NCBI GenBank assembly: GCA_027320695.1
Contig: DAHVKW010000001.1
Coordinates: 10,993 to 74,992, forward strand
DNA from: Actinomycetota bacterium
Lineage (GTDB): Bacteria > Actinomycetota > Acidimicrobiia > Acidimicrobiales > Acidimicrobiaceae
Direction: 5' to 3'
DNA length: 64,000 nt
Numbering within the stretch: position 1 is the stretch's first letter; every line of letters begins with the position of its first letter. Both the position numbers and the translations under genes were made by a program. Under the pieces are notes generated by a model. The model had not been told where the DNA came from and ran no database searches. It worked only from the letters and a program-made list of their open reading frames with translations. This document shows positions 30,280 through 50,729 of the stretch, in pieces.

Positions 30280-31062
30280 GTGGCGAGTAATCCAACTCCG
30301 GCGCGCCGCACGAGCAATCTTGGGCAAGAATTGTTCAGTCCTGTCACCTCTGCGAGAATTTCCGCAACGATAGTAAACCAGATCAGAGCTCTGATACATC
30401 AGGGCCAGCTTTCCCCTGGCGACAGACTTCCGTCCGAGAGGGAGTTATGCACCTCATTCGGGGTCAGCAGAATTACCATTCGTGACGCTTTGCGAGTCCT
30501 TGAATCTTCAGGTCTAATCGAGATTCGGGTCGGCGCACATGGAGGCGCGTACGTAACGGCGCCAACCAGCAGCAACATAATCTCAGGAATTACTGACATG
30601 CTTGCAATGTCATCGCTCTCGGCAGCGGAGATCACTGAAGCTAGGATCATATTTGAACTTGGGATCATTGAGCTTGTTTGCGAACGAGCAAAAGAGGAAG
30701 ATTTCGAGGAGTTGGAGGAGATTCTGGAGCGATCACGTGCTTCGCTGGAAACTAACAGCTACAACACGGATCTTTCGGCGGAATTTCACGTTCGTCTCGC
30801 CAAGAGCGCTCACAACCGGACGTTGAATCTAATTATCGAGTCGTTTCAGGGTCCACTACGCTATTCCCTGCTCGAAGCAAAGCATGCGGCTCCGGCGATG
30901 GGCCATCCGGGCGTCCTCGAGCACCAGGAACTCTTGAAGGCACTGCAGAACAGGGATCCCGTCGCTGCCAGAGATGTCCTTTACAGGCACCTGAGTCGCA
31001 CATATCACCGGCTGATCCATGATGAAGCTGAGGCGGCAGCGGAGGAAGCTCCGCAGCCCTAG
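30280..31062 (+). CDS. GntR/FadR family transcriptional regulator
   Basis: The wHTH reads GDRLPSERELCTSFGVSRITIRDALRVLESSGLIEIRVG. The C-terminal half is an FCD-like helical domain. Confidence 0.85.
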   Translation: MASNPTPARRTSNLGQELFSPVTSARISATIVNQIRALIHQGQLSPGDRLPSERELCTSFGVSRITIRDALRVLESSGLIEIRVGAHGGAYVTAPTSSNIISGITDMLAMSSLSAAEITEARIIFELGIIELVCERAKEEDFEELEEILERSRASLETNSYNTDLSAEFHVRLAKSAHNRTLNLIIESFQGPLRYSLLEAKHAAPAMGHPGVLEHQELLKALQNRDPVAARDVLYRHLSRTYHRLIHDEAEAAAEEAPQP

Positions 31063-31962: not shown

Positions 31963-32964
31963 ATGGGGAAAGACGGGCGCGTATTTGTGCGCGGAATGAC
32001 ATCGCAAACATACGGACTTTCAGGATTTCGCGATCTGCAGCTGGAACTGGACAGGGTTAGAAGCGACACCGTAGTTACCGATGATGCAACCGTTGGCCAC
32101 TCTGGGGATTCCGAAGAGTCTCGCACTTGGTGGAAGATTGGTCCCGGGGATGATGATTTTCTCACCCAAACTCTCCAAGTTCACTTCGTTGAGCTGTTTC
32201 CTGGTGGTTCCAACCATGGCCACGGACATCAGAACGAGGCGCTTTTTTACATCCTTGAGGGCAAGGGATACGAGATTCATGACGACAAGCGCTACGACTG
32301 GGCGAAAGGCGATCTGGTTGTAGTACACGACGACTCGGTTCACCGCCACTTCAACGATTCTAAAACCGAGCGCGCGCTCTGCATCATTTTCAAGGCAAAA
32401 TCGCAGTGGATGTTCCTGGGCATGATCCAGCAGGGTCGAAGTGGCCCCTTTGAAAAAGAGGGCTTCGGACCGCGTATCGAGTGGGGCCAGGTGTGGCTAG
32501 ACGATGTTGAAAGCCGGAAAAAAGTAGTCCATTCGTCCGACTGCAAATGGGAAGATGTGCCCGGTGGAAGAATCCGAGTCATGTCGTCCCCGGAGCGGAC
32601 AGACGTCAGAGCTTTCAGCGTCGACGTGTACGAGCAGGAAGTGAATCCAAACTCGGAAAGCGAAGCTCACTGGCATATGGCGGACGAAGTTGTGTATGTC
32701 TTGTCCGGGAGCGGGAAAAGCATTCAATGGCAGGTTGAAGCAGAAATTGCCGAGAAGTACTATGCCCATGTTGCCGAAACTCCAAGAACCTTCGACATCA
32801 ATGTAGGCGATGTTCTCTACATTCCCCAGAACACTATTCATCAGTACGTGAATAGTTCCAATGAGCCTCTGGTATTTCTCTCGGCTCAAAACCGCATGTT
32901 CAAGTTACTGGGCTATAAGGATGAAGTCCATGTGAAGCTGGATAAAGGCCGTCCCGTCTTCTAA
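31963..32964 (+). CDS. bicupin protein (dioxygenase-like)
   Basis: AGGAGG plus 4 nt, then ATG. Two cupin modules: GGSNHGHGHQNEALFYILEGKGY...GDLVVVHDDSVHRHFN, and a second with HWHMADEVVYVLSGSG. Confidence 0.7.
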   Translation: MGKDGRVFVRGMTSQTYGLSGFRDLQLELDRVRSDTVVTDDATVGHSGDSEESRTWWKIGPGDDDFLTQTLQVHFVELFPGGSNHGHGHQNEALFYILEGKGYEIHDDKRYDWAKGDLVVVHDDSVHRHFNDSKTERALCIIFKAKSQWMFLGMIQQGRSGPFEKEGFGPRIEWGQVWLDDVESRKKVVHSSDCKWEDVPGGRIRVMSSPERTDVRAFSVDVYEQEVNPNSESEAHWHMADEVVYVLSGSGKSIQWQVEAEIAEKYYAHVAETPRTFDINVGDVLYIPQNTIHQYVNSSNEPLVFLSAQNRMFKLLGYKDEVHVKLDKGRPVF

Positions 32965-33609: not shown

Positions 33610-35358
33610 TCACACGCCCTGCGCCACTGCAATATTTCTTCGCCTGGGTTGCGGCGCGAAGGGTTTCAGGTTGTCAATCCCCCATCGATGGCAGAAATCG
33701 CCAAACTCTTCTCCGTCGTTAGCATGCGCGGCGTACAAAAGCACGATGGGCTCCAGCGCGGCGACAACTCCTTCTGAGGCAACATCGGTTGCATATATTT
33801 CACCGAGTCGGTTGCCGGCCCTGTCGGCGCATAAATAGATGTCGTATGAATGCTTAGACCTACCCACTATGCCTATCTCTGCGAGGTATGGCCGAGCGCA
33901 TCCATTTGGGCAGCCAGTCATCCGTATCTCGATGTCGAGGTGTGAAAGGCCAAGGTCGTCAAGTAGCTGGTTGAAGGTCAGAAGGAACGTTGGGAGAAAC
34001 CTTTCTGACTCAGTCAGCGCGAGACCGCAGGTAGGCAACGCCGGGCATGCAAATGCCGAACGCGATATGGAGGTATAGTCCTCGGCTAGTTTTATTCCGA
34101 ACGAAGTCAAGATCGCGATGATTTCGTCGCGCGCAATTTCAGGGATATCGGTGAGAATGACATCCTCCTTCGCCGTGAATCGCACCGATAAGTTGAACTT
34201 GGTTACCAGGTCCCTGATGGCGGTCCTATGGGCTCCGCTGGCCGTGTCGGCAATTCGGCCGCTCGGCACTTTAATGCCATATGCGAGATGATCTTTGGAC
34301 TGCTCGATCCAGCCCAAGTGATCGCAGCTGTTGGAGAACTCCAAACTGTCGAGCCTTTTAAGCACCAGCCCCGAGCGCCTCTCGGACTCCATGCGCAACC
34401 TGTCGGTACCCCACTCCTCAACTAGATATTTGAATCTGGCGTGAGAGCGGTCAGCACGGTTCCCATGATCTCGCTGAATCGAAATAACTGTGTCAATTAC
34501 CTCGAATAAGTCGCTTCTTGGCACTGTAGCAAATGGCTTTGCCAGAAGAGGCTTCGTCGTGTCGTCGGAATACGATCGTCCCAGGCCACCCCCAGCCAGA
34601 ATGTGAATGAAGTTGGGGTCAGTTTCGTCGATAACCAACGCAAGGTCGCAAGACAACACATCAATGCAGTTGTCGAGGGTCGTCGTAAGGCCGATCTTGA
34701 ACTTCCGGGGAAGATATGACGAACCATACAAGGGCTCAATTGTATCGGCGGAAACGGCGGCCTGAAGATTAGGAACCTTTTCACCGTCCAGCCAGATCTC
34801 GTAGTAGGCGCTCGAGGCAGGCTTGTAGCGTTTCGATATCTGATTGGCTAGTTCGCCCAGGCCGAGTGTTTCAATTTCCGGCGCAGGAGAGGGGCATGCG
34901 GTGACATTTCTCACCACGTCGCCACACCCGCCATAAGTGGAGAGGAGTACCTGGTTTACTTTTTGAATAAGCGCTTTAATATTTTGCTTGGTAACGAAGT
35001 GAAACTGGATTCCTTGCCGCGTTGTGACTCTGAGGGTCTGATTTCCAAACGCATCTGCGAGTTGGTCCGCCGCCAGGTACTGTTCAGGTGACAGGCGGCC
35101 TCCTGGAATTGCTAGACGGATCATGCAAATATGTTCGACGTCAAGCCCGACGCGTTTTCTGTCAGCTCTGACGTCGCGATTATCCTGATTATAGATACCG
35201 TGGAATTTCAATAGCTGTTCAGATTCGCCCGAGAAGTTGGGCAAGCCGTTTGAAAGTTCTTCGACAATGCTTCCTCTCAATTCATTGCTTGACTGTTTTA
35301 TCAGTTCTACCTTCGATTCTGTGCCTTGGTCCTTTGGTTGTGATGTCCTAAAAGTCAT
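33610..35358 (-). CDS. cysI: assimilatory sulfite reductase hemoprotein (CysI/Sir family)
   Basis: KVELIKQSSNELRGSIVEEL...LLKFHGIYNQDNRD is the typical N-terminus. Siroheme/4Fe-4S cysteines: CPALPTCGLA...TGCPNGCARP. It is the last gene of the cys operon. Confidence 0.88.
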   Translation of the reverse strand: MTFRTSQPKDQGTESKVELIKQSSNELRGSIVEELSNGLPNFSGESEQLLKFHGIYNQDNRDVRADRKRVGLDVEHICMIRLAIPGGRLSPEQYLAADQLADAFGNQTLRVTTRQGIQFHFVTKQNIKALIQKVNQVLLSTYGGCGDVVRNVTACPSPAPEIETLGLGELANQISKRYKPASSAYYEIWLDGEKVPNLQAAVSADTIEPLYGSSYLPRKFKIGLTTTLDNCIDVLSCDLALVIDETDPNFIHILAGGGLGRSYSDDTTKPLLAKPFATVPRSDLFEVIDTVISIQRDHGNRADRSHARFKYLVEEWGTDRLRMESERRSGLVLKRLDSLEFSNSCDHLGWIEQSKDHLAYGIKVPSGRIADTASGAHRTAIRDLVTKFNLSVRFTAKEDVILTDIPEIARDEIIAILTSFGIKLAEDYTSISRSAFACPALPTCGLALTESERFLPTFLLTFNQLLDDLGLSHLDIEIRMTGCPNGCARPYLAEIGIVGRSKHSYDIYLCADRAGNRLGEIYATDVASEGVVAALEPIVLLYAAHANDGEEFGDFCHRWGIDNLKPFAPQPRRRNIAVAQGV

Positions 35359-35456
35359 GTTGTTCTCCTGTCACCTTTGTGCTTTGAATTGGAAAATGTT
35401 GAAACTCTCTTTGGCGCCGGCACTCGCTTGGGCCTGGCTTGGATGCTTCGTTGCCG

Positions 35457-36623
35457 TCACGTTTGGTAAGCGCGCCTCAAGACCTCTGCTACTTCGGGTC
35501 GTGAAAATTCCGGGGGCAAACCTTCACCGTTTGCCAGTAGTTCGCGCACTTTAGTGCCTGACAGCGAAACGTGGAATTCGGGACCATGGGGGCACGTCCT
35601 CTTTGACGCTACCTGGCGACAGACTGAGCAAAAGAAACTGTGTTCGAACTTCAATATGTGAATATCGAGTTCTCCCTGAGGTAGCGTGTCGAAAATCTCC
35701 TGCGCTGCGTAGGTTGAGTAGTAATTTCCCACTCCCGCATGATCTCGCCCCACAATGAAGTGAGTGCATCCGTAGTTCTTTCTCGATATAGCATGCAAAA
35801 TCGCTTCTTTAGGTCCCGCATAGCGCATTGCAGCGGGGTATACACCCAGAAGGGTCCTGTCACTCGGGTAGTATCTTTCTAGCAGCACTGAGTATGCCTC
35901 CATTCGCGCCGGAACTGGCACATCGTCACTCTTTGTCTGGCCTACCAATGGGTTTAAGTAAAGACCGTCCACTACCTCAAGAGCGATTTTATGGAGATAT
36001 TCGTGGGCTCTGTGAACAGGATTCCGAGTCTGAAATGCGGCCACCGATTTCCAGTTTCTGTCAGCGAAGGCCTTCCTCGTCTGAACCGGGGTTAGATATT
36101 CGGGCCCCTCATAGCCACGGATTGTTTCATGGAGCGACAACATGCCCGTGAGAGCCCTATCGCCGCCGGAATAGAGAATTTTGACGCCGGGGTGGTCCTG
36201 CGATGCGGTCGCATAAATTTTTGACGCCTCCAATTCGAGGTCGAGTTTGAAGATTTCGTCGATTTCGAGAGTTGCTACGTGGTTCAGATCATGCGTCAGC
36301 TCGAGATACCTTGCCGTCGGGTCTATCTGGCCCGAGAGAAACTGGAAGACTATCGGAATCGGCCAGAGAGTTCCGTCGGTCAAATGCATCGATTCGATGA
36401 CCGAAAAATAGTCTGACTTGCCCATAAACGTTTCGAGCGGCGAGTATGCTCCGATGGCGATCATTTCGAGATCCGCATATTGCCGCGGCGTAAGCTCTAA
36501 GGACACCGCGCGAGACCGCTTCTGCCGAGGAACGATAGAAAGTCCCTTTAGAGTCCCGCCATGAGGAGCGTTGAGATCTTGTGGATTCATGAATGCATCT
36601 TCCCTTTTGTAGTGTGTACTCAA
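35457..36623 (-). CDS. sat: sulfate adenylyltransferase (homo-oligomeric ATP sulfurylase)
   Basis: AFQTRNPVHRAHEYL and GRDHAGVG motifs. Confidence 0.9.
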   Translation of the reverse strand: MSTHYKREDAFMNPQDLNAPHGGTLKGLSIVPRQKRSRAVSLELTPRQYADLEMIAIGAYSPLETFMGKSDYFSVIESMHLTDGTLWPIPIVFQFLSGQIDPTARYLELTHDLNHVATLEIDEIFKLDLELEASKIYATASQDHPGVKILYSGGDRALTGMLSLHETIRGYEGPEYLTPVQTRKAFADRNWKSVAAFQTRNPVHRAHEYLHKIALEVVDGLYLNPLVGQTKSDDVPVPARMEAYSVLLERYYPSDRTLLGVYPAAMRYAGPKEAILHAISRKNYGCTHFIVGRDHAGVGNYYSTYAAQEIFDTLPQGELDIHILKFEHSFFCSVCRQVASKRTCPHGPEFHVSLSGTKVRELLANGEGLPPEFSRPEVAEVLRRAYQT

Positions 36624-36687
36624 CCCGGCCGCGATAAGGTCGGCGAACTTCGCCTATCGAAGTAGCTGCCAGAATTCGTTAGCTCGA

Positions 36688-37323
36688 TCAGAGTGATCCC
36701 CATAGGCCGCATTCGGTTCTTCCCTGCCCATTGAACCGCCCGGAGCGCTGGTCGTCCCCAGGGCGAACCGCCTTTGTGCATGGCCAACACCCCATCGAGA
36801 GAAATCCGCTGAGGTACAGGGGATGGATTTCAAGATGTCGCGCTTTTGCGTATTTCTCCAGTTCCAGGCGAGAAAGGTTTACCAGAGGGTTGATGTGGGT
36901 AGGAGAACCCTCCTCGACAATCTGTAATTGCGACCTTCCTCGGGCACTGTCCCTGGTCCTGGCATTGATCAGGGCAGAGGGTTTGAGTATCGACAGGTAC
37001 TCGCTTAGCGGCGCGATCTTATTTATCTGGCAGCACTTGACGGGATCGGTCTCAAATAGAAATCCGCTTTCGGTATTAGACCGCAATTTCACGAATGAAA
37101 TGCGGCTATATCTCGCCTCCAAACTCTGCCAAAAGTGCAAGGTTTCTGGAAAATGGTAACCGGTGTCGACAAAGATCAGCTTTCCAGCAAATCCCGCTCG
37201 CGAGGCTATATCCAATAAGACCGTGCCGGAAAGATTCAGGCCCGTGGTCATGACTACGTCGTCGTAGTTTGCAAGTGACCAGCGGATGATTTCCTCGGCT
37301 TCGCTGGTGTCAATTCCGGTCAA
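36688..37323 (-). CDS. cysH: adenylyl-sulfate / phosphoadenylyl-sulfate reductase (thioredoxin), with the Fe-S cluster cysteine pattern
   Basis: It carries KCCQINKIAPL, GCWPCT and the C-terminal ECGLW. The CC...CxxC pattern is the one found in APS-type reductases. Confidence 0.88.
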   Translation of the reverse strand: MTGIDTSEAEEIIRWSLANYDDVVMTTGLNLSGTVLLDIASRAGFAGKLIFVDTGYHFPETLHFWQSLEARYSRISFVKLRSNTESGFLFETDPVKCCQINKIAPLSEYLSILKPSALINARTRDSARGRSQLQIVEEGSPTHINPLVNLSRLELEKYAKARHLEIHPLYLSGFLSMGCWPCTKAVRPGDDQRSGRFNGQGRTECGLWGSL

Positions 37324-37858
37324 CTATGCCCTCCTTTGCAAGGAGAGTGAGCACTTCTTCTACCGATCCGGAAATCTGCGTTCCATCAGTGTCCAAGCGA
37401 AGAGCCGGAAATTCAGGCCGTTCATATGGATCATCAACGCCGGTCAGGTTCTTTACTTCGCCCAGCTGCGCACGTCGGTAAAGGCCCTTGGTGTCCCGCC
37501 GCTCCAACACTGGCAAGGGCGCGTCAACAAAGATCTCAAATCCCCTCGCAAACGAACCAATGGCACCGTTTCGCGAGTCACGGTATGGGCTTATTGCGGA
37601 GACGAGCACGACGATGCCATTTTTGGCGAGAAGGTTTGCAACGAAGGCGATGCGTTGAACCTGGAGATCGCGATCTTTTTTCGAGAACCCAAGATCGCTC
37701 GATAGTGTTGCCCTCACCTCGTCGCCGTCAAGCAGCTCCGTTTTTACGCCGTGTTTCAATAGATCTGCTTGAACTTCTTTAGCTATCGTGGTTTTCCCTG
37801 CTCCGGAAAGTCCGGTGAACCAGAGAACCGGGGCGTGATCTGCCATAAAATCCTCCAT
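37310..37858 (-). CDS. cysC: adenylylsulfate kinase
   Basis: VLWFTGLSGAGKTTIA P-loop. 182 aa. It overlaps cysH by 14 nt. Confidence 0.9.
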   Translation of the reverse strand: MEDFMADHAPVLWFTGLSGAGKTTIAKEVQADLLKHGVKTELLDGDEVRATLSSDLGFSKKDRDLQVQRIAFVANLLAKNGIVVLVSAISPYRDSRNGAIGSFARGFEIFVDAPLPVLERRDTKGLYRRAQLGEVKNLTGVDDPYERPEFPALRLDTDGTQISGSVEEVLTLLAKEGIVDRN

Positions 37859-37887
37859 TAGAGTAATTATGAGTGTTCAGTACCTGG

Positions 37888-38610
37888 TCAGGAGTTAGAT
37901 TGGCTTCTTGACAATCGGCCATCTAACAAATTGTTAGTGAATGGGGTTACAGGCCAGGTCTCATGCTCGTCAGGTTGGACGCCGGGTGCGAATGCCAAGC
38001 CAAACGATGGAGTCCCATGGTCCTTGATGCTTGTGTGCGCCGGCTTTGTTCCTGCGAGCTGTCGAGACCTGACACGGTTTTCTAGGGCAGTCCAGTCGAA
38101 ATCAAATGTTGAGCGGCCGCTAGCCTTAAGCAGCGCTCTGGATGCGACAAAGGCATCGAGTACCAATAAGTCCTCAATACCGACCTGGCTCGCCAACCGC
38201 GTGCTGAGCCTCGAGGCAAAGGCTGGAGAGGCGCCATTGGTCGATACGGCAATTTCAATATGCGGATCGATTCGTCTTACGGCTACGTGGCAGAAACTCG
38301 ATGTTGGCTTTTCATCCAAAGTATTCAACAGAAACCCAAACTTTCTGGACTTCTTGAAGAGCCACTCGTTTATCGCTCTGTCTCTATCTGTGGCGATAAC
38401 CAGAAAGACGTCTCTGAAATTGCGGGCGCGCAGCTTCGGTTGGTAGGAGAAATTGACGCCCTCGAGCCGGGTTCCCAAGGTGGGGTCCGAGGTAGAAACA
38501 AGGGTCACCTTCGCTCCCTCGTTCGACAATGACTTGGATCTGGAGACTGCTTCAGAACCCGAGCCAACTATCAGCACAGTCCTACCCTTTAAGTTAAGGG
38601 AGATCATCAT
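37888..38610 (-). CDS. precorrin-2 dehydrogenase / sirohydrochlorin ferrochelatase (CysG N-domain / SirC type)
   Basis: LKGRTVLIVGSGSEAVSRSKSL is a Rossmann motif. 240 aa. It heads the sulfite reductase operon. Confidence 0.8.
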   Translation of the reverse strand: MMISLNLKGRTVLIVGSGSEAVSRSKSLSNEGAKVTLVSTSDPTLGTRLEGVNFSYQPKLRARNFRDVFLVIATDRDRAINEWLFKKSRKFGFLLNTLDEKPTSSFCHVAVRRIDPHIEIAVSTNGASPAFASRLSTRLASQVGIEDLLVLDAFVASRALLKASGRSTFDFDWTALENRVRSRQLAGTKPAHTSIKDHGTPSFGLAFAPGVQPDEHETWPVTPFTNNLLDGRLSRSQSNS

Positions 38611-40624: not shown

Positions 40625-42709
40625 CTAAATCATGCCGTGGAACGTCAAATGGAACAAGGATACGAATGCGTATGCCAATATTCCCGTGACAGCTGTCGCG
40701 ATAACGGCGAAAACCGCACGTTTCCTGAGGCTTTCAATGTCTTTGTTTACCATTGCATAGATAAATGTCATCAGGGGTACTCCGATCTTGAATCCAAGAA
40801 CAAGCGACGCTGCTGCCGTCCCGGCGAACCAGAGAAGACCAATGAACTCTCGAATGTTCTGATGACGGCGGTCCTTCCAGGATTCCGGCTCGTTATCGTG
40901 TTCCATTCGGGTCATCACCGCGACCGCTGAAGGTTCAGCTCCTGTCGGCTCGCTTGAAGTCTCGATTGCAGGCTCAGACACGTCGGCATTGTGGCCGGGC
41001 AAATCTAATCCATCGGTGTGTCTCGAATGCAGCCATACTGGAAAGTCCCTGCTCAAGCGATACAGAGAAGCAATCGCAGCGAGAATGCCGACTACCACTG
41101 GAATTTGCCCTGCCTGGGATGGATAGCCCAGACCAACGATGAAATAGGTAATAGAAAATGCAGCCATTACGGCGTCAAAGATCCATTCCATAAGTGGATG
41201 TTTCGCCGCCAAGCGCATAGCGGTGTTCTTGTTCTTGTGCCACCTCATGCCTGCGGAGAACACGAGATAGATTGCAACCAGCAAGAATACGTCGGCCAAT
41301 GGGCTCTTGGTTACAAAATTCCAGCCATAGAGCGAATATGTCAGGTGAACGTTATCGTCGAAGGTGCCACCTAGCACTAGTCCGATAGCGGCTGCAGCGA
41401 CGGAATAACCCAAATCCCGAACCACAACTCCAAGGATGCTGAATACAACCAGGAGGTAAATCCCCATTGTGGTATTAACGTCGGCAAAGCTGCCAAGTAC
41501 AGCTAGGGCGATTATGAAGGGAAACATGTAAGGACCCTTGATCCCGGTAATGCGAGAGAGCTGCGGTGCCAGCAAAAGCCCGACAACGCACGACAGCAGC
41601 CCTGCGATTGCCATTATCCACATCATCGAGTACGGAAGTGTAGGTGATCCCTTCAGAAGCGTCGGTCCGGGCTCAAGGCCAAGGATTGTCAGCGCGGCAA
41701 TAAAAATGACCATCCCGAGCCCCGATGGAAGCCCCAATGCTACCGCCGGAATTATTGATCCAACCTCTTTGGACAGCGACGAACCTTCCGCCGACATTAA
41801 TCCCTCTGGAACGCCCGTTCCAAACTCATCCCTGCGTCGGGAAACTCTTTGCCCCACGCCGTAGGAGATGAAGTTTGCGGTGAACCCACCTATTCCGGGG
41901 ATAAGACCCAGAACTGTTGCGATTATTGCCGATCGGGCCACATGATGCCACTTACTGAAGGTCTCAGCGATTCCTGCTCGGACCTGGGCCTGAAATCCTT
42001 TCCCAAGCTGCGCCTGGTCAAATGTCGCGACCGCCTTTTGGGACCCGTACATTTTAACCATTTGAGTTATCGCGAATACGCCCAGCGCAAATGGGACAAC
42101 CCCAATCCCGCTATAAAGAGTTGGCATTTGCATGGTGAACCGTTCGACACCGGTAACAGGATCAGATCCAACAAAGGAAAGCATCAAACCGAGAAGACCG
42201 GATATGAAGACCTTTGAGAGCGGTATATTTCCAGTTTGCGCAATCAGGACGATTGCCAGAATGATGATCGCCATGTACTCCGGCGGATGAAATATTGTCG
42301 CGAGTGGCCCTGCTAGCTGGATCAGGCCGATGAATATGATGCACGCTATCCAGCCACCCATCCAAGTAGATGTGGCTGAAATGGCAAGCGCTTTACCGGC
42401 TTCCCCTCTTTTGGCCATAGGAAATCCGTCCAGTGTGGTCGGGAAGGATTCCGGCGCTCCAGGCGAATTCAATACTATGGCTGTAATCGAGGCGGAAAAA
42501 TATACTCCGGACTGTGTAGCCAGCATCATTGAGACGGTTTGGAGAACGCTCATATGGTAGACGAACGGCAGCATAAGAGTAAGAACCAGGACAACGCCTA
42601 GTCCGGGCAGCATGCCAACGAACATGCCTATTGCCATGCCAAATAGCAGTAAGAGCAATACCGGGGCCGTCCCAAGATTGGTTAGCCCGGTAAATAAATG
42701 TGCGATCAT
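40625..42709 (-). CDS. tripartite tricarboxylate transporter permease, TctA fused to a TctB-like C-terminal 4-TM module
   Basis: 694 aa. The first roughly 500 aa are TctA-like (GMFVGMLPGLG..., GTVLGLIPGIGG-like repeats). Four further TM helices follow, interrupted by an acidic loop of about 50 aa. The start overlaps the upstream stop by 4 nt. Confidence 0.8.
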   Translation of the reverse strand: MIAHLFTGLTNLGTAPVLLLLLFGMAIGMFVGMLPGLGVVLVLTLMLPFVYHMSVLQTVSMMLATQSGVYFSASITAIVLNSPGAPESFPTTLDGFPMAKRGEAGKALAISATSTWMGGWIACIIFIGLIQLAGPLATIFHPPEYMAIIILAIVLIAQTGNIPLSKVFISGLLGLMLSFVGSDPVTGVERFTMQMPTLYSGIGVVPFALGVFAITQMVKMYGSQKAVATFDQAQLGKGFQAQVRAGIAETFSKWHHVARSAIIATVLGLIPGIGGFTANFISYGVGQRVSRRRDEFGTGVPEGLMSAEGSSLSKEVGSIIPAVALGLPSGLGMVIFIAALTILGLEPGPTLLKGSPTLPYSMMWIMAIAGLLSCVVGLLLAPQLSRITGIKGPYMFPFIIALAVLGSFADVNTTMGIYLLVVFSILGVVVRDLGYSVAAAAIGLVLGGTFDDNVHLTYSLYGWNFVTKSPLADVFLLVAIYLVFSAGMRWHKNKNTAMRLAAKHPLMEWIFDAVMAAFSITYFIVGLGYPSQAGQIPVVVGILAAIASLYRLSRDFPVWLHSRHTDGLDLPGHNADVSEPAIETSSEPTGAEPSAVAVMTRMEHDNEPESWKDRRHQNIREFIGLLWFAGTAAASLVLGFKIGVPLMTFIYAMVNKDIESLRKRAVFAVIATAVTGILAYAFVSLFHLTFHGMI

Positions 42710-44838
42710 CTAGTGTGTCCCCCTAGTGATTGGATAGTAGTTTTGAACCCATTTGCTGCATGTCTGTGATTTGGTAATTTATGATCTCGATCCAGCAGGC
42801 CTTTGTATAGCCTGAGAAGTTTTTCTGGTAGCGAACTGACATCTTCCAGTATCTCCACTTTTGCAGATGCTAACTCCGAAACATACTCCTCCCCAGCAGG
42901 ATCGACGGTAAGAACATACGGCTCTATGCCACCAGCGCTCAGTTCCCAGAGCGCCTTGTCACTATCGGCAAGCGCGTACGACTGTGACTCGGCCTCTCCG
43001 TAGCTTGTTCCGTAGTCAATGTCGAACGGTCGTCCGTCTGTGAGAATAAGAAGCACCTTGGTTTGCGATTGCAACTTCGAAAGCACCATCCCGCAGTGTC
43101 TTACTGCCGCACCAAGACGGGTCGCGTGAATTGGCTTGATTGCCGAGGCTCGGGAGACCACCATTCCAGACATTGGCTCGCTAAAGCCTTTGATTTCGCT
43201 GAGCACTACCCGTTCCCGTCCGGTTCCGGAAAAAGTCCAAACGCTAAAGGCGTCACCGACGGCATCCAGAGCGCTTGTACACAAAAGCGAACTTATCATC
43301 TCGATGTCGAGTATGCGTGGTGGCCGAAGCGTTGGGTTCGGCGAGATATCCCGCGGCAAGGCCGACTCAATCGGTTCGGCATCCTCCACTCTTTCCGCCG
43401 TGGATGCGCTTACATCAATAAGAAGCAGTACGGAAATGTCTCGCCGGGCCCGTCTCAAGTCTTGATATACGAAATCATTCGTTCCAGCACCTGTGCGAAA
43501 ATCTATCAGAGCACCGACCGCTGCATCGTAGTCGATGTCAGGCCCATCGGGAGCGCGCCGTTCCACTTCAAAGGCCTGAGATAACGGGACGTCCATTGCT
43601 CGCCTAAGGCGCCGTAACTCCTTCGCATATCGGATTTGGAGTACACTTCGTTCAAGAGCTCCCCCGCCAGGTGCTGATAGCTGAACGACCCTGCACCAGT
43701 CCCTGCGGTATTGGCCTTGGTACTTGTCCCATTCGGGATACAAGAACGTTTTGGCTCCCATTGGACGGAGCGAGCCCTCTTCATGGCTGTGGAGATGTCT
43801 CGAGACATCGTGGTGATCGTGAGGAAGGGGCTCAGGCGGTCCGGAAACAGCGCTTTTAGTGGTCAAAATCTCGCCGCCCTCTCCAACTTCAGATATGCTG
43901 CGCATATGGTAAAGGGCCTGATGGTCAGGCCCTGAAGCCGACGGAGCTCTGACTAGAAAGGATCCAATCGATCCGCGGTAGGAGATATCCGGCAGAGAAA
44001 TCAGCAGAACGTCGTCGCCTTCGAGCCGAACGCGGCCTTCCTCGGGCCATTGACTCGGCCACAAGGAACTGATCGACTTCGTAGAATCGGATGCGTCAAG
44101 AACCTTCGTGCCCGATTTGCCAAGTACGCCCAGATTCGGAAGCAAATTTACGACGCTATACATTTGAACGCAGGCGGCGGCAATATCCTCAACCGAAGCT
44201 TCGAGGAGATTTAGGGAGTCGTAAATCATTAACGTTTCCCTGGCTGCCTCTGCGATCGCCTCGGGCACCTCATTGATTCTCGGATCCATGCTTCGCCTGA
44301 GCGCGAATTCAACCACAGCTCCACGCGGGGGAAGCCCATTCCAATCTGGTCGAGAAAGAAGCTCCGAGCTGATTGCAGACTCTAGCTGATCTTTTAGCCC
44401 AGGATAAATGAGGGGCAAACGCGCATCAATTCTTGCGTCTTCAAGAGTCTCGAAAATTAACTTCGCCAGCGGAATGTCTGAAAAGGCGGCAAAAAAGACT
44501 TCAAGGTCGCTTGCCCCCTCGTCGCTTGGCGTCAGGGTATTCCGCAAGAGAGTATTAGCTACCCTTTCGATTTGGAAATCATACGTCCCCAATTGGAGAT
44601 GTAGGGAACGGTGAGCAAGCGCAAGCCGGTAAAAGCTGCGCTTTGAGATCCCAGCTGTTGCTCGTGGCAAACGGATGGTGGTGGGCGTGTCCGGGTAGTG
44701 CGCTGGGTCCTCGGGAGCATACTGCTCTATAGTCACATCGTTCCCGCTTAGCGCTCTAAAGTAGAGCTCAAAAGGACGAGTTTGGACGTCCTCGCCCACA
44801 ATTTCGCGATTAACTGTGTTGGCGACATTTGCCATCAT
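42706..44838 (-). CDS. CbbO/NorD-like protein with a C-terminal VWA domain
   Basis: 710 aa. The N-terminal region reads YRLALAHRSLHLQLGTYDF, as in NorD/CbbO. The VWA MIDAS motifs are LLIDVSAST and LILTDGRPFD. It overlaps both neighbours by 4 nt. Confidence 0.8.
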   Translation of the reverse strand: MMANVANTVNREIVGEDVQTRPFELYFRALSGNDVTIEQYAPEDPAHYPDTPTTIRLPRATAGISKRSFYRLALAHRSLHLQLGTYDFQIERVANTLLRNTLTPSDEGASDLEVFFAAFSDIPLAKLIFETLEDARIDARLPLIYPGLKDQLESAISSELLSRPDWNGLPPRGAVVEFALRRSMDPRINEVPEAIAEAARETLMIYDSLNLLEASVEDIAAACVQMYSVVNLLPNLGVLGKSGTKVLDASDSTKSISSLWPSQWPEEGRVRLEGDDVLLISLPDISYRGSIGSFLVRAPSASGPDHQALYHMRSISEVGEGGEILTTKSAVSGPPEPLPHDHHDVSRHLHSHEEGSLRPMGAKTFLYPEWDKYQGQYRRDWCRVVQLSAPGGGALERSVLQIRYAKELRRLRRAMDVPLSQAFEVERRAPDGPDIDYDAAVGALIDFRTGAGTNDFVYQDLRRARRDISVLLLIDVSASTAERVEDAEPIESALPRDISPNPTLRPPRILDIEMISSLLCTSALDAVGDAFSVWTFSGTGRERVVLSEIKGFSEPMSGMVVSRASAIKPIHATRLGAAVRHCGMVLSKLQSQTKVLLILTDGRPFDIDYGTSYGEAESQSYALADSDKALWELSAGGIEPYVLTVDPAGEEYVSELASAKVEILEDVSSLPEKLLRLYKGLLDRDHKLPNHRHAANGFKTTIQSLGGHTR

Positions 44839-45686
44839 GTATCGCTGTCGCCAAAGTACGCGGTAATGACCTCAACTATCGCTTCCCGGGAAACCGAGTC
44901 GTCCGTGACAACGTCAGCAATCGCAGCTATGCAGGCTCTTTGAGGAGAAACTCCCCTTGCGATCAGACGTGAAGCGTATACCAGAAGCCGAGTGCTGGGT
45001 CCTTCGATTAGGTAGTCGTTATTAAGGTTTCTCAAGTTCGCCGCCAGCGCGCTCAAACGCTCTGCCACAGCCGGTTCAGCACCGCCTTCGTAAATCAATA
45101 TCTCGCTCTCGAGCTCAACTGTCGGATAGCTGAACTCAATTGCTACGAACCTCTGGCGAGTTGAGTGCTTGAGATCCTTGATGCTTGTCTGGTAGCCAGG
45201 ATTGTATGAAACTACCAGCAAAAAGGAAGGGTGCGCTTCGATCAGCGTGTCGAGTTTAGCTATCGGCAGGAAGCGGCGGTGATCGGTGAGGGAATGAACT
45301 ACCACCATAACGTCCTTGCGGGCCTCCACCACCTCGTCGAGGTAGCAGATTCCGCCGTTTCTCACCGTATGGGTGAGCGGACCGTCGACCCAGCGGGTTC
45401 CATCTTTTTCAAGAATGAATCTTCCCAGAAGGTCTGAGGCGCTGAGGTCCTCCTGACAGCTCACCGTCGTCAGACTGACTTTCTCGCCCGCTTCATTGTT
45501 GGAAAGCCGTGAGGCCATGTACTCCAGAAAACGAGTTTTCCCGGTACCAGTCGGACCTTTGAGCAAGACAGGAGTCCTGTCAGCGTAGGCCGCTTCGAAT
45601 AACCCCACTTCGTCGCCGACCGCCAGGTAGAATGGCTGATCGACGTGAGAGCTACCGATTGAGCCTGGGCTATTTTCTTTGATCAT
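44835..45686 (-). CDS. CbbQ/NirQ/NorQ/GpvN family AAA+ ATPase
   Basis: 283 aa. Walker A LLKGPTGTGKT and Walker B ICYLDEVVEA. The length and C-terminal region are typical of CbbQ. Confidence 0.88.
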   Translation of the reverse strand: MIKENSPGSIGSSHVDQPFYLAVGDEVGLFEAAYADRTPVLLKGPTGTGKTRFLEYMASRLSNNEAGEKVSLTTVSCQEDLSASDLLGRFILEKDGTRWVDGPLTHTVRNGGICYLDEVVEARKDVMVVVHSLTDHRRFLPIAKLDTLIEAHPSFLLVVSYNPGYQTSIKDLKHSTRQRFVAIEFSYPTVELESEILIYEGGAEPAVAERLSALAANLRNLNNDYLIEGPSTRLLVYASRLIARGVSPQRACIAAIADVVTDDSVSREAIVEVITAYFGDSDT

Positions 45687-47179
45687 GAGAGTCGATCATC
45701 CACATTTGTAGCAAATTCGCCGTTTTGGTCCCGCTCAATCCAGGAGATAGGGTCATGGGCGTAGTCCTTGAAATAGTCGCCAGGGTAGTTGATTCCAGGC
45801 ACGGCTGGAATCCAATCGTATTCAAGAAGGCTCGTGTTCCCCAGAGCAAGCGCAAGCCTGACCACATCTGGTTCATCAAGCACCTTCAAACGCCCCTTGT
45901 CTATCAAAGAATACCACTCGCCCGTACTGCGCTTTTTGATTTGGTAGGTGGCGAATACGTTATGCACATGAGGAAAATGCATGGTTGGCAGATGGTTCTC
46001 CTTGGCATATTTCAAGAAGGTCTGATCCCAGTGCTCCGCGCCAAACCCAAAGTGTATTACCCCAGCTTGAGCCCTTTCGGGAAGGTTGGTCCAGGAGTCG
46101 TTGTAGTTCCACAATGTCTCGATCTGGCGATAGCTCTTTGGATTGGTCCCAATCGACGCGTCGTTGAAGTAGTGCCAACCAGGGTACGGAAATCCCGGAT
46201 AGTGGTAGTCCTTGTACTTCTCTACGACTTCACGCCATAGCTCGCCGTACCTGCCTCCGCCAACGATCTTGCTGATCTGGCCAGACTCAATATGAACTTC
46301 GATGTGCGGGAAATATCCGGTGTGATTGCTGACTCCGGCAACGACCCCGTTCAGGGTCTGGTAGAGAGAATCAGCCTGCTGTATGAATGTTTCTACGGGA
46401 TGGCCAAACCGTATTCCCTGAATTGTTGATCCTATGATGTGCCCGGATTGGAACGCACCTTGGACCCAAAGAGCAGCTTGCTCTTCTGTCACCTTCCAGC
46501 CAATGTCGGTACCTTCAGGACTGGTTATCCGTATCTCCGAGGCATCGCTGAACGCCTGGACCACCTTTAGGTCAACTGTGCGCCAAATTTCGTCCGGATA
46601 GCTATTGGCCCGTGAAATGAAATCTTCATAAGTGGCGTACATCCAATTATTGCGAACTCTTTGGCCAGCGGCGCGCTTCCAGTGGCGCCTGCCGGCCTCG
46701 CCAGCTAACACGGCCGTATATCCTGGGCGATCCTCCAAATAATTCTTTAGAGTCGCCGCGGCGACGTTGAATTCAACTCCGCTTTCGACCATGGGCGGCA
46801 AACGGTCAGTTATTTCTCGCCAACCTTCAGCAGCGCTATAGGTTTTGACCTCCATCCCAAGATCAGTGACATCAATTCTGTCCACGCTTTCAGCGCCTTC
46901 TTCAAGAAGTGCCCTGCGGACTGCCTCGTAGACGGCGTCATTTTGGTGAGGATAAGTGATGATCAGGATCTTGTCTCCGGGAATAGTGGGTCCTAGCGCC
47001 GCTCGGCCATAGCGCCTCCTTGCCACGGATCTCGCCAAGGGCATCAATTCTTCGACATCGTTGCACCGTTCCTGACGAAGATAGAACGGGTGGCGTGGCG
47101 CAGGATAGGACATCCCCGGCAGCGCAGCTGGAGTACCAGGAGCGAATTCTTCAAGTTTGCGTTGATCTTTAAGTGACAT
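45683..47179 (-). CDS. hypothetical enzyme, probably aminopeptidase-T (M29) / NicX-like fold
   Basis: The 498-aa ORF is certain. The family call is by eye only: GDKILIITYP...AVRRALLEEGAE, IRITSPEGTDIGWKV, IEVHIESGQISKIVGGG, GVIHFGFG and HFPHVH resemble the M29/NicX architecture. Confidence 0.5.
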   Translation of the reverse strand: MSLKDQRKLEEFAPGTPAALPGMSYPAPRHPFYLRQERCNDVEELMPLARSVARRRYGRAALGPTIPGDKILIITYPHQNDAVYEAVRRALLEEGAESVDRIDVTDLGMEVKTYSAAEGWREITDRLPPMVESGVEFNVAAATLKNYLEDRPGYTAVLAGEAGRRHWKRAAGQRVRNNWMYATYEDFISRANSYPDEIWRTVDLKVVQAFSDASEIRITSPEGTDIGWKVTEEQAALWVQGAFQSGHIIGSTIQGIRFGHPVETFIQQADSLYQTLNGVVAGVSNHTGYFPHIEVHIESGQISKIVGGGRYGELWREVVEKYKDYHYPGFPYPGWHYFNDASIGTNPKSYRQIETLWNYNDSWTNLPERAQAGVIHFGFGAEHWDQTFLKYAKENHLPTMHFPHVHNVFATYQIKKRSTGEWYSLIDKGRLKVLDEPDVVRLALALGNTSLLEYDWIPAVPGINYPGDYFKDYAHDPISWIERDQNGEFATNVDDRLS

Positions 47180-47336
47180 CTTTACCTATCTCTCGGTTGG
47201 CGTCGGGTTCTAACACTGAGCCGGGAATAAACAATTGCAGGTGGGCTGAAACGCGGCGCTCGACAGATTGCGAGTCAGCTAGGAAGCGGTTATGCACAAT
47301 TCGATTCATTTTGGATCGCAGAAGTCAACTAGACTG

Positions 47337-47372
47337 AAAAAGCAAAGCGCACCACCTCGGTCTGCACTTTGC
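47337..47372 (-). terminator. intrinsic-terminator-like hairpin plus T5 in the leader of the 498-aa gene
   Basis: GCAAAGTGC-(13 nt)-GCGCTTTGC, 9 bp including one G-U, followed by TTTTT. It lies about 160 nt upstream of the ATG at 47179. Confidence 0.4.
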
Positions 47373-47512
47373 CATCAAAGCGACCTTTGTCAGATCCACC
47401 GCCAAAATGAAACAAGTTCCATACCCCACATCGATTCCGGACAAAGCAAATAAGCGCACAGAAACGTATCCGTAGCAGTCCTGCCAACAGCACGATCCTG
47501 ATATATCGGACC

Positions 47513-47540
47513 ATTATACCGAAACTAGTAAGCCAGTCAA
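47513..47540 (-). promoter_or_regulatory. sigma-70-like promoter TTGACT-16 nt-TATAAT
   Basis: -35 at complement(47535..47540) and -10 at complement(47513..47518). Both hexamers are at or near consensus. Confidence 0.4.
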
Positions 47541-47562
47541 GGGGATGAGCCATATTTGCGAG

Positions 47563-47946
47563 TCATTTGTCACATGCGTACTCAGTAATGGCTCCTTCCC
47601 TTACGATAATTCGGGCGGATTCGCCAATGGCAGCCGCCGAGGCTACTGGATAATCCGAAGGGTTGGCAAATCGTGGAATCGCCACTTCGGCCGCGAGATT
47701 GTCCATTGCTAGGTTGACGGGATCGTTCGACGCCAAGGCGCGAAATTCAGCGAGCGCCTTCTTGTCGCGGCTGCCCACTAAAATGCCTCCGCGAAGTAGG
47801 CAGTTCCTAGCGATACTTGGCTTCGCCGCTAGGGCAGGGACTGCGGGCATCGGCTCGCCTTCTGCAACCTCTTGATCCATCTCCTGCTCTTCATTATTGC
47901 GATGACTCCAGGGGAAGGTATCTTCCTCTGCTCCGGTGAGGATCAA
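47563..47946 (-). CDS. hypothetical small protein (start uncertain)
   Basis: 127-aa ORF in operon position after the TPP enzyme, with an acidic N-terminus. I recognise no family. Alternative ATG starts lie further in. Confidence 0.45.
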   Translation of the reverse strand: MILTGAEEDTFPWSHRNNEEQEMDQEVAEGEPMPAVPALAAKPSIARNCLLRGGILVGSRDKKALAEFRALASNDPVNLAMDNLAAEVAIPRFANPSDYPVASAAAIGESARIIVREGAITEYACDK

Positions 47947-47986
47947 CTAGAAGATGAGGAATGCTGCTAAGAGGTCTCAAAAACAC

Positions 47987-49817: not shown

Positions 49818-50729
49818 CTAAATTAATGCAGCCGCAAACAAGTCTTCTGACGTCAGTTTCTCCGGATTCAATGCCAACTCTTTCCTATCGGACAGCGCCT
49901 TCAATGGCAAACGGCGCAACTGGCGTCCATCCCATCCAGCACAGGCTTTAGCGAGTTCGCGGTGCATTTCAGCATTCTTGGCCAGCGGCTTTATTGCTGG
50001 CCAGATTTCGGACAGCTCGTCAAGCGACAGAGCAATGATTTTGGAGGCTGTCTCCACGTCAGGAATCTCCAGCGAAAGAACAAGATCTGCGCGCGACGTG
50101 AACGCCTCGTCAATCGCTCCGGGAAAGTTTGTAGTAGCCACCACCAATACGTTGGGACACCGCTTCATCAGTCTGTCCATGCCTTCAAGCACGGCGTCGC
50201 TCGCCCTGTGGACATCAATGGGGTTCGCTTCGAAAGATGCGGATGAACGTCGTACGGCAAAACTCTCCACTTCGTCAATAACTACGACGAGATGGGGGTA
50301 TCGAAGTGACAATTCTGGAAGCGAGTTGTCGAGCAGCCTCGCAACGTTTCTCTGGCTTTCTCCGAGCATTTCGCTGGGAAGGACGTGCGGATTTACCTCT
50401 ATGAGACAGGTATCCCCTTTTTCGGCCAGTTCTTTGGAAACAATTTCAGCCAGGCCAGTGGCCAACGTGGTCTTACCGGTCCCTGGAGGGCCGGACAATA
50501 TTACGAGCCGTTGCAACGCGCCAGGCAGCGCATAAAACTCCTTTTCGTGTGCCAATGCAAGGAGGGCATGCGAAAGCAGGCGAGATTTGATCCTCTCGTC
50601 GACAATGATCCGGTCCCAGTTGCGGGTACCGCCCTCGTCCGGCAATATCCGTTGCGCCGAAACTCCATGTATCGGCGCGGAATGGTGATGGTGGTCTACG
50701 GCCAAGTTGGCCGCCTTACCTCGGGCCAC
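49818..50729 (-). CDS. TRIP13/Pch2-like AAA+ ATPase
   Basis: Walker A SGPPGTGKTT and Walker B VVVIDEVES. TTNFPGAIDEAFTSRADLVLSLEIPD and the C-terminal GRQLRRLP closely recall the TRIP13 motifs IDVAFVDRADIKQYIGPP and GRVLRKLP, as I remember them. Confidence 0.6.
   Translation of the reverse strand: MARGKAANLAVDHHHHSAPIHGVSAQRILPDEGGTRNWDRIIVDERIKSRLLSHALLALAHEKEFYALPGALQRLVILSGPPGTGKTTLATGLAEIVSKELAEKGDTCLIEVNPHVLPSEMLGESQRNVARLLDNSLPELSLRYPHLVVVIDEVESFAVRRSSASFEANPIDVHRASDAVLEGMDRLMKRCPNVLVVATTNFPGAIDEAFTSRADLVLSLEIPDVETASKIIALSLDELSEIWPAIKPLAKNAEMHRELAKACAGWDGRQLRRLPLKALSDRKELALNPEKLTSEDLFAAALI

Follow-up and report, generated by a model that had tools for sequence, protein, structure and literature searches.

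An AAA+ ATPase/VWA adaptor pair of the CbbQ/NorQ-NorD type encoded beside an M29/NicX-fold protein: a proposed third client class

Two clients have been established for the CbbQ/NorQ-type AAA+ ATPases and their VWA-domain adaptors CbbO and NorD: Rubisco, where the machine releases an inhibitor, and the nitric oxide reductase that depends on cytochrome c (cNOR), where it inserts the FeB metal (PMC9976466, PMC13036017). How these remodellers recognize and open a client is still debated (PMC13036017). In the open-access reviews and primary papers searched, Rubisco and cNOR are the sole clients given for CbbQ/CbbO-like machines, RavA-ViaA, CoxD/E and the chelatases being more distant systems, and we found no description in the open-access literature of the gene module reported here. 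This module lies in a 64,000-nt stretch of contig DAHVKW010000001.1 (hereafter the window) from an Actinomycetota bacterium of the Acidimicrobiaceae, and encodes a CbbQ/NorQ-type ATPase (Q283), a NorD/CbbO-type adaptor (D710) and a 498-residue protein (X498) whose predicted fold is that of M29 aminopeptidases and of the dioxygenase NicX.

From synteny and by analogy with the systems above, we infer that X498 is the client of Q283 and D710 and that the pair has a role in metal insertion. The three proteins probably constitute a dedicated enzyme/activase module within a catabolic island, in which an assembly of six Q283 and one D710 (Q6-D1) would mature or reactivate the metal site of X498. On a somewhat less firm footing, we lean towards the view that the CbbQ/NorQ-NorD machine has a third client class, a soluble His-rich metalloenzyme of M29/NicX fold whose metal Q6-D1 would load or reset. 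The genes concerned are the following.

45683-47179, minus strand: X498, 498 aa, proposed client of Q283/D710, M29/NicX fold
44835-45686, minus strand: Q283, 283 aa, CbbQ/NorQ-type MoxR AAA+ ATPase
42706-44838, minus strand: D710, 710 aa, NorD/CbbO-type adaptor
40625-42709, minus strand: TctA-TctB fusion permease, 694 aa, tripartite tricarboxylate transporter (TTT) family, translationally coupled to D710

At each of the three junctions in this series the coding strand reads ATGA, a stop codon and a start codon overlapping by 4 nt. An earlier note on this stretch had listed the same four open reading frames (ORFs) and overlaps, and its coordinates match ours exactly; the motifs that it had picked out in Q283, D710 and X498 were likewise all found at the expected residues upon translation.

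Q283 and D710 compared with known ATPases and adaptors

Judged by its sequence, Q283 is a CbbQ/NorQ-type MoxR AAA+ ATPase, as had been proposed. The Pfam domains AAA_5 (8e-30) and CbbQ_C (1.9e-22) follow one another, both over their curated cut-offs, and residues 11-279 match the solved structures of CbbQ (5c3c, 1.3e-87; 6l1q, 5e-87), which is the best match, and of NorQ (9qh4, 5e-79). With NorQ of the NorQ/NorD system (PDB 9qh4-9qhg) it shares both a CbbQ_C-containing MoxR architecture and a length of ~270-283 aa. A weak NCBIfam match to CobS (TIGR01650, 3.8e-7) was also recorded. Three motifs of Q283 are of interest here, Walker A and Walker B both being intact.

45534-45557, minus strand: Walker A, GPTGTGKT, residues 44-51 (by translation)
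45330-45344, minus strand: Walker B, YLDEV, residues 115-119 (by translation)
45396-45425, minus strand: helix-2 insert, GRFILEKDGT, residues 88-97, corresponding to the NorQ consensus GRxLL/IxxxxT

In NorQ it is this helix-2 insert motif that grips the VWA finger of NorD (PMC13036017); the insert of Q283 has an Ile at the first Leu position of the consensus.

D710 belongs to the NorD/CbbO type of adaptor, and its MIDAS, an adhesion site dependent on a metal ion, is intact. Its residues 364-679 match solved NorD chains in a phmmer search of the PDB (9qhd_G, 6e-27; a second chain, 5.5e-26). In an AlphaFold model built with 36 homologues, a helical N-domain (~20-245; predicted local distance difference test, pLDDT, 80-95) is followed by a disordered linker (~250-355, with pLDDT below 50 for residues 296-353) and by a putative finger plus VWA region (~364-686), the VWA itself having a pLDDT of 70-93. 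This is the layout of the ~640-710-aa NorD adaptors (N-domain, disordered linker, finger, and VWA with a DxSxS-T-D MIDAS), with a candidate segment in the place of the finger. When the VWA region was submitted to Foldseek, the NorD VWA was the best match (9e-21, target template-modelling (TM) score 0.76), followed by the MIDAS domain of midasin. Since no Pfam or NCBIfam model matches D710 above threshold (only VWA_2 appears, at E=0.053), its VWA identity rests on this similarity to NorD in both sequence and fold; the earlier designation as a CbbO/NorD-like protein with a VWA/MIDAS domain thus holds for the kinship and for the intact MIDAS, and lacks the corroboration of a Pfam VWA match. The relevant segments are listed below.

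43402-43416, minus strand: MIDAS motif DVSAS (D475-V-S477-A-S479), residues 475-479, with D, S and S invariant in the 36 homologues
43027-43041, minus strand: MIDAS residue D601 within TDGRP, residues 600-604, invariant in the same homologues
43438-43581, minus strand: finger-equivalent segment, residues 420-467, aligned to residues 403-448 of Paracoccus denitrificans NorD

The remaining MIDAS residue, T573, is conserved in at least 90% of the 36 homologues. The finger-equivalent segment (~420-467) aligns by phmmer without gaps to the P. denitrificans finger, whose limits have been placed at 403-448 (PMC13036017), and is modelled as strand-helix-strand.

The two known adaptors differ from D710 in their N-terminal parts. 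The N-terminal half of D710, its N-domain included, has no detectable similarity to solved NorD chains or to CbbO; CbbO proteins (765 aa) align only to the C-terminal 45-48% of D710, and D710 has, compared with NorD, an extra insertion of ~20 residues after DxSxS. An exhaustive search found remote homologues of the N-domain (27-40% identity) in 260 representative proteins, among them uncharacterised NorD-like proteins of 650-760 aa and of 900-1130 aa, and the idea that this domain is exclusive to the module was dropped accordingly.

High similarity of Q283 to CbbQ could be taken to mean that the pair is a trans-acting activase for a Rubisco or cNOR encoded elsewhere in the genome. We find this barely credible, given that the N-terminal half of D710 has no detectable similarity to CbbO or solved NorD chains, and given the retention of the triad with X498 homologues in many genomes, including those of the heterotrophs Amycolatopsis, Actinoplanes and Pseudonocardia, and the lack of Rubisco or nor genes in any inspected flank. 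In the window itself, as previously noted, no known client is in evidence, there being no Rubisco or NorB (COX1) domain among the large ORFs; the flanks of two further loci, L083 and L084, have none either.

Another orphan Q/D pair came to light in two loci (L088, 7178-11036; L089, 2981-6839), where a 268-aa CbbQ-like protein is followed by a 1011-aa NorD-like VWA protein, which aligns with D710 at 26% identity along 93% of its length. Beside the pair is the gene of an MnmA-like tRNA methyltransferase; the pair converges with a Hydantoinase_B gene, and no Rubisco gene, nor gene or X498 homologue is found nearby. The window has a Hydantoinase_B gene of its own at 27729-29516 on the minus strand.

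X498 and its candidate metal site

Sequence searches place X498 in no known family: there was no match in Pfam, in NCBIfam, in a phmmer search of the PDB or in a PDB search with a 40-sequence profile, and the Pfam model NicX (PF26233) failed to match X498 or three of its homologues even at E<=10, while Peptidase_M29 gave no match to X498. A hidden Markov model scan of all fetched loci (see below) for weak NicX/M29 relatives likewise returned nothing better than E ~1, although some homologues carry "faint" precomputed matches to PF26233. AlphaFold modelled X498 with high confidence (pLDDT 92.6, predicted TM score 0.92), and Foldseek returned exactly eight significant matches for the model in the PDB, all of a single fold, the two-domain one of AmpS, with the next at E=0.07. 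The best E-values belong to the M29 aminopeptidases PepS, AmpT and AmpS (1e-11 to 6e-9), and NicX is matched at 1.6e-9 (7cn3_A), 1.8e-9 (7cup_E) and up to 3e-8, with a target TM (0.57-0.58) that is the highest among all the matches. The M29/NicX assignment made in the earlier note is therefore borne out at the level of the fold, PepS, AmpT, AmpS and NicX being the only matches, and falls short at the level of family, with no Pfam match and neither of the two signatures kept. Three segments of X498 stand out.

Residues 216-228, minus strand: IRITSPEGTDIGW (by translation)
46040-46063, minus strand: GVIH376FGFG, residues 373-380, resembling H-V-G-W-G around His257 of Hpo
45962-45979, minus strand: H401-F-P-H404-V-H406, residues 401-406, with H404-x-H406 where NicX/Hpo have H-x-D

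Forty homologues, down to 30% identity, define a conserved polar set made up of D225, H247, N285, H286, D/E340, E368, H376, H401, H404 and H406. H401 and H404 do not vary among homologues, H406 is conserved in 91-100% of them, and H376 is present in 100% of those linked to Q/D genes and in 96% of those that are not.

Comparison with the two relatives shows how far this set has diverged. In Hpo, as read from mutagenic primers, the Fe ligands lie in N-E-S-H257-V-G-W-G and A-C-H310-L-D312-I-P and give the signature H-X52-H-X-D (PMC3831237), His257 corresponding to His265 of NicX. X498 lacks that signature: H376 is followed, 27 residues on, by H404-V-H406, and the position of the Asp is taken by His in 91-100% of homologues. 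Nor does it have the catalytic/metal set EEHYHD of M29 enzymes (PMC7023490), but a His-dominated set instead. With NicX/Hpo, the 2,5-dihydroxypyridine 5,6-dioxygenase (7cn3, 7cup), it has in common the fold, a pattern H-[VF]-G-[WF]-G followed by H-x-[DH], and a catabolic context with alpha/beta hydrolases; it differs by its length (498 aa as opposed to ~350), an identity of only 12%, the changed spacing, the replacement of Asp by His and the additional invariant H247, H286 and H401. We know of no member of the NicX family that needs an AAA+/VWA pair. X498 represents a third, hitherto undescribed branch of the AmpS/NicX fold, in which the putative metal motif is made up of His only.

As for the site itself, H376, H404 and H406 are the candidate primary ligands, which may form a 3-His version of the 2-His-1-Asp site of NicX, and H247, H286, H401, E368, D/E340 and D225 are conserved besides, the mapping onto NicX and M29 having been done by motif similarity and conservation, not by structural superposition. 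We propose that X498 is a soluble His-rich metalloenzyme. Fe(II) would be the favoured metal, because the nearest fold relative by TM is an Fe(II) dioxygenase and because the closest chaperone analogue inserts non-haem iron at a His-rich site, and the substrate is most likely an imported acid, probably one that contains nitrogen or is aromatic.

AAA+ rings commonly partner with peptidases, and the lead of PepS, AmpT and AmpS among the Foldseek E-values might suggest an ATP-dependent machine for processing proteins or peptides, with X498 as an M29-like peptidase to which Q283 and D710 deliver, or for which they unfold, the substrate. Such a role seems extremely improbable: X498 has neither a Pfam M29 match nor the EEHYHD set, and its context is one of small-molecule catabolism (transporters, GntR regulators, dioxygenases, aldolases, amidohydrolases). 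The pore of NorQ, moreover, is filled by the VWA finger and not by a threaded substrate (PMC13036017).

Conservation of the X-Q-D triad and a possible mechanism

X498 has 138 clusters of homologues. Its relatives were also sought in a scan of one genome per species, which gave at least 333 loci. The top 77 of these were taken together with flanks of up to 10 kb per side and searched with the proteins of the window, 67 of them being informative for X-Q-D adjacency. In 65 of these 67 loci the triad is preserved, either with both Q and D next to X (60 loci) or with Q at the end of the contig (5 loci), and the only loci having at least 3.5 kb on both sides and yet no Q/D are L024 and L078 (47% identity). 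Recurrence on this scale, in two phyla, takes the adjacency beyond chance; the earlier note had allowed for the pair accompanying the 498-aa protein in no other genome, which is clearly not the situation. The carriers among Actinomycetota include Amycolatopsis, Actinoplanes/Paractinoplanes, Pseudonocardia, Phytohabitans and many metagenome-assembled genomes (MAGs), and those among Betaproteobacteria include Herbaspirillum, Oxalobacteraceae, Thiobacillus and Burkholderiales. A near-identical contig exists in a JGI metagenome (X498 99%), and a 98% relative in an Actinomycetota MAG; no match to X498 was obtained by tblastn in 72,556 plasmids. The order is mostly X-Q-D, with Q-D-X in L058, L059, L070 and L077.

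The three proteins have also diverged together. Over 50 loci, the pairwise-identity matrices correlate at 0.87 for X-Q, 0.86 for X-D and 0.93 for Q-D, and X is the most conserved of the three, with a mean identity of 78% as compared with 64% for Q and 46% for D. Four loci (L016, L048, L052, L074) have two tandem X498 paralogues, each scoring ~850 bits, ahead of one Q-D pair, an arrangement that may point to a hetero-oligomer as client or to one chaperone serving two clients. In two database proteins, P0073 (604 aa) and P0094 (423 aa), an X-like part runs into the beginning of an AAA_5 domain; rather than true fusions, these are probably gene calls that cross the X/Q overlap by frameshift or read-through.

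More distant X homologues (30-47% identity) have another organization. For eight of them, found in Streptomyces umbrinus, Streptosporangium, Acidobacteria and assorted MAGs, no Q/D gene lies within 8-10 kb, and their neighbours are instead genes for hydantoinases, amidohydrolases, acyl-CoA enzymes or cytochrome P450. These proteins retain the His cluster, which indicates that the chemistry of the fold has no intrinsic need for an ATPase, and Q283 and D710 consequently fit an accessory factor better than an obligatory catalytic partner. Dependence on Q/D appears to be a trait of one X subclade, at identities of ~55% or more. There is a parallel in nitric oxide reductases, where the quinol-dependent enzyme (qNOR), in contrast to cNOR, has no NorQD (PMC9976466), and a similar one in Rubisco, of which only some forms need an activase. 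Within the linked clade, specific residues are found beside the His motifs (N339, D340, which is Glu in unlinked proteins, H383, W384, M400, F402 and an inserted P403), and specific charged residues or His in the N-terminal domain (D106, D125, R126, D150, H166, R169 and D196); the latter are candidates for putative MIDAS docking residues.

A Pyr_redox_2 reductase and a small Fer4 ferredoxin are encoded near X in the Q/D-linked locus L084 (19416-20778) and directly downstream of X in the unlinked locus L087 (9821-11236). This pair could feed electrons to X or reactivate it reductively.

Strict synteny and co-divergence can be read in another way, namely that X498, Q283 and D710 make up a chelatase-like three-subunit enzyme, X498 being the catalytic or substrate-binding subunit and Q/D the motor at each turnover, as CobS/CobT are for CobN and ChlI/ChlD for ChlH, for example to put a metal into, or take it out of, a small-molecule ligand. 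In the class I chelatases CobNST and ChlHID, too, an AAA+ motor is encoded together with a VWA/MIDAS subunit and with a third that handles the substrate, Q283 has its weak match to CobS, and the ATP-binding cassette (ABC) importer that usually accompanies the module (SBP_bac_1/6/11, fused double permease, TOBE ATPase) has a layout that also serves Fe(III) uptake. Yet the third subunit would be a 55-kDa protein of M29/NicX fold in place of the 140-kDa CobN/ChlH, of which the operon has no CobN-like counterpart; the kinship of Q283 with CbbQ/NorQ (1e-87) is much closer than that with CobS; the transporter of the window is a TTT carboxylate-type permease and not an iron-type ABC system; and X homologues at 30-47% identity keep the His cluster with no Q/D. 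We regard a chelatase-like enzyme as unlikely.

Several points weigh against X498 being the client of a maturation or reactivation machine. Tight synteny fits a stoichiometric three-subunit enzyme equally well. Two loci of the linked clade, L024 (76% identity) and L072 (58%, on one side only), have more than 3.5 kb of flank and no local Q/D. The assignment of the X498 ligands draws on motifs and conservation. Lastly, the N-domain of D710 has remote homologues in other uncharacterised NorD-like proteins and so is found outside the module as well.

The maturation or reactivation reading draws on features shared with the described systems. As with NorQ/NorD, the genes adjoin that of the client, here a proposed one, the proposed client site is a His-rich non-haem metal site, and some client homologues manage without the chaperones (qNOR and Thermus thermophilus cNOR in the one case, the unlinked X clade in the other). 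The differences are in the client, a predicted soluble protein of M29/NicX fold as against a membrane haem-copper oxidase, and in the setting, catabolism as against denitrification. With CbbQ/CbbO, the module would share a Q6O1-type architecture and a soluble client, and it could plausibly act by reactivating an active site that is inhibited; here the difference is that the window has no Rubisco gene.

The mechanism that we envisage is modelled on NorQD and CbbQO (PMC9976466, PMC13036017). Six Q283 subunits would assemble into a ring, which would grip one D710 by means of the VWA finger, held by the helix-2 inserts, and of the C-terminal part of D710. D710 would dock on X498 through the cation held at the MIDAS and through the N-domain or the linker, with an acidic residue on the surface of X498 acting as the sixth MIDAS ligand, for which the clade-specific D106, D125, D150 and D196 are candidates. 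ATP hydrolysis may then cause a rotation that twists or stretches D710, by which X498 would be transiently pried open, and in this opened state the active-site metal could go in, or a site that is oxidised or inhibited could be reset. What the analysis shows is the identity of Q283 and D710, the modelled fold and the conserved residues of X498, the coupling of the genes, the conservation and joint divergence of the triad, and the lack of known clients in the window; the metal, insertion versus reactivation, the docking residues and the substrate are, like the role of X498 as client, points on which we infer rather than observe.

We put the chances slightly above even that what has been found is a known remodelling machine with a new class of client. 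In that case, metal insertion of the "finger-in-pore, twist-and-open" kind would be a maturation device that is both general and portable, and a soluble, easily expressed model client would be at hand in place of membrane-bound cNOR. With such a small soluble client, the rules of recognition (the acidic MIDAS residue, the roles of the N-domain and linker) and the choice between insertion and reactivation would become directly testable. It would also provide the first functional handle on a family present at no fewer than 333 loci in species-representative genomes and filed as "hypothetical protein", D homologues being called "VWA domain-containing protein" or, automatically, "NorD". Heterologous expression of such catabolic enzymes, finally, may require that the Q/D genes be expressed along with them.

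The catabolic island and its other enzymes

In most loci an ABC importer is encoded directly upstream of X, consisting of an SBP_bac_1-type protein, a fused double permease and a TOBE_2 ATPase, whereas in the lineage of the window a TTT permease lies downstream of D instead. The TctA-TctB permease (Pfam TctA 1.3e-99, TctB 2.5e-5) is thus the variable transporter slot of the X-Q-D module. Other neighbours recur: bicupins, LigXa-like Rieske oxygenases, a PanB-like protein, alpha/beta hydrolases, thiamine pyrophosphate (TPP) enzymes, HpcH aldolase, TauD, amidohydrolases and GntR-FCD regulators.

On its 5' side, X498 is separated from the gene for a TPP enzyme by an unusually long gap of ~800 nt (47180-47986), for which no Rfam match was found at E<=1. 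In close relatives (L004, L008, L002, L076) the gap at the same position ranges from ~530 to 2000 nt. It holds one feature that resembles a promoter.

47513-47540, minus strand: promoter-like site TTGACT-16-TATAAT, 11 of 12 consensus matches, ~335 nt upstream of the X498 ATG

This site is a consensus match only, such sites being as numerous in shuffled sequence; taken as a sigma-70-like promoter, its distance from the ATG would imply a long leader. Because of the gap and of this site, X-Q-D-TctAB is probably a transcription unit of its own. An ORF of 127 codons within the gap (ORF127, 47563-47946) has no family match and is not called in the near-identical contig, and we treated it as spurious.

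The island offers other potential clients for Q283 and D710, namely the Mo-hydroxylase, a bicupin dioxygenase or the TPP enzyme, in which case X498 would be a mere neighbour. The MoxR/VWA pair CoxD/CoxE, which matures Mo-Cu carbon monoxide dehydrogenase, is a precedent for the first of these, and the L, S and M genes of the Mo-hydroxylase lie 6-9 kb upstream with no XdhC/CoxDEF maturation gene visible nearby; for the second, 30 of the 77 loci have a bicupin at most 10 kb away from the module. A Mo-hydroxylase large subunit is found within this distance in only 6 of the 77, however, and neither figure compares with the 65 of 67 informative loci in which X stands beside Q/D. It is with X, moreover, that the pair is translationally coupled, and not with the Mo-hydroxylase, the bicupin or the TPP enzyme; the promoter-like site and the 800-nt gap come between X-Q-D-TctA and the bicupin-AAA-TPP unit; and the bicupin has an AAA partner of its own. 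A client elsewhere in the island is for these reasons quite improbable, and the Mo-hydroxylase, which the earlier note had put forward as the alternative, is rejected on co-occurrence.

Between 40.6 and 58.5 kb, the minus strand carries in order TctC, Mo-hydroxylase L/S/M, a GntR regulator (on the plus strand), bicupin, AAA, TPP enzyme, X, Q, D and TctAB; hydrolases also belong to the island. The TctC-type binding protein (57390-58505, minus strand) is encoded ~15 kb away from the TctA/B permease (40625-42709, minus strand), beyond the Mo-hydroxylase genes, and this separation across the Mo-hydroxylase suggests that the whole stretch is one catabolic island.

A second enzyme/AAA+ pair is present in the island, with a 34-nt overlap between its genes.

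49818-50729, minus strand: AAA ATPase, 303 aa
50696-51877, minus strand: bicupin, 393 aa

The ATPase belongs to the classic clade (PF00004), its best PDB match being TRIP13/Pch2 (3.6e-29), followed by Cdc48. The bicupin is gentisate-1,2-dioxygenase-like and may be another dioxygenase with a dedicated ATPase; the pair recurs in 11 of the fetched loci (L001, L002, L004, L008, L010, L011, L021, L022, L025, L026 and L076). A further bicupin gene (31963-32964, plus strand; 333 aa, Cupin_2 and Cupin_1) adjoins a GntR-FCD regulator gene (30280-31062), and relatives of this 333-aa protein occur no more than 10 kb from X-Q-D in 30 of the 77 loci. Directly downstream of the island, and marking its boundary, is a sulfate-assimilation block (33610-38610, minus strand), unrelated to the X-Q-D module, with genes for a sulfite/nitrite reductase, ATP sulfurylase, phosphoadenosine phosphosulfate (PAPS) reductase, adenosine phosphosulfate (APS) kinase and a sirohaem synthase-like protein.

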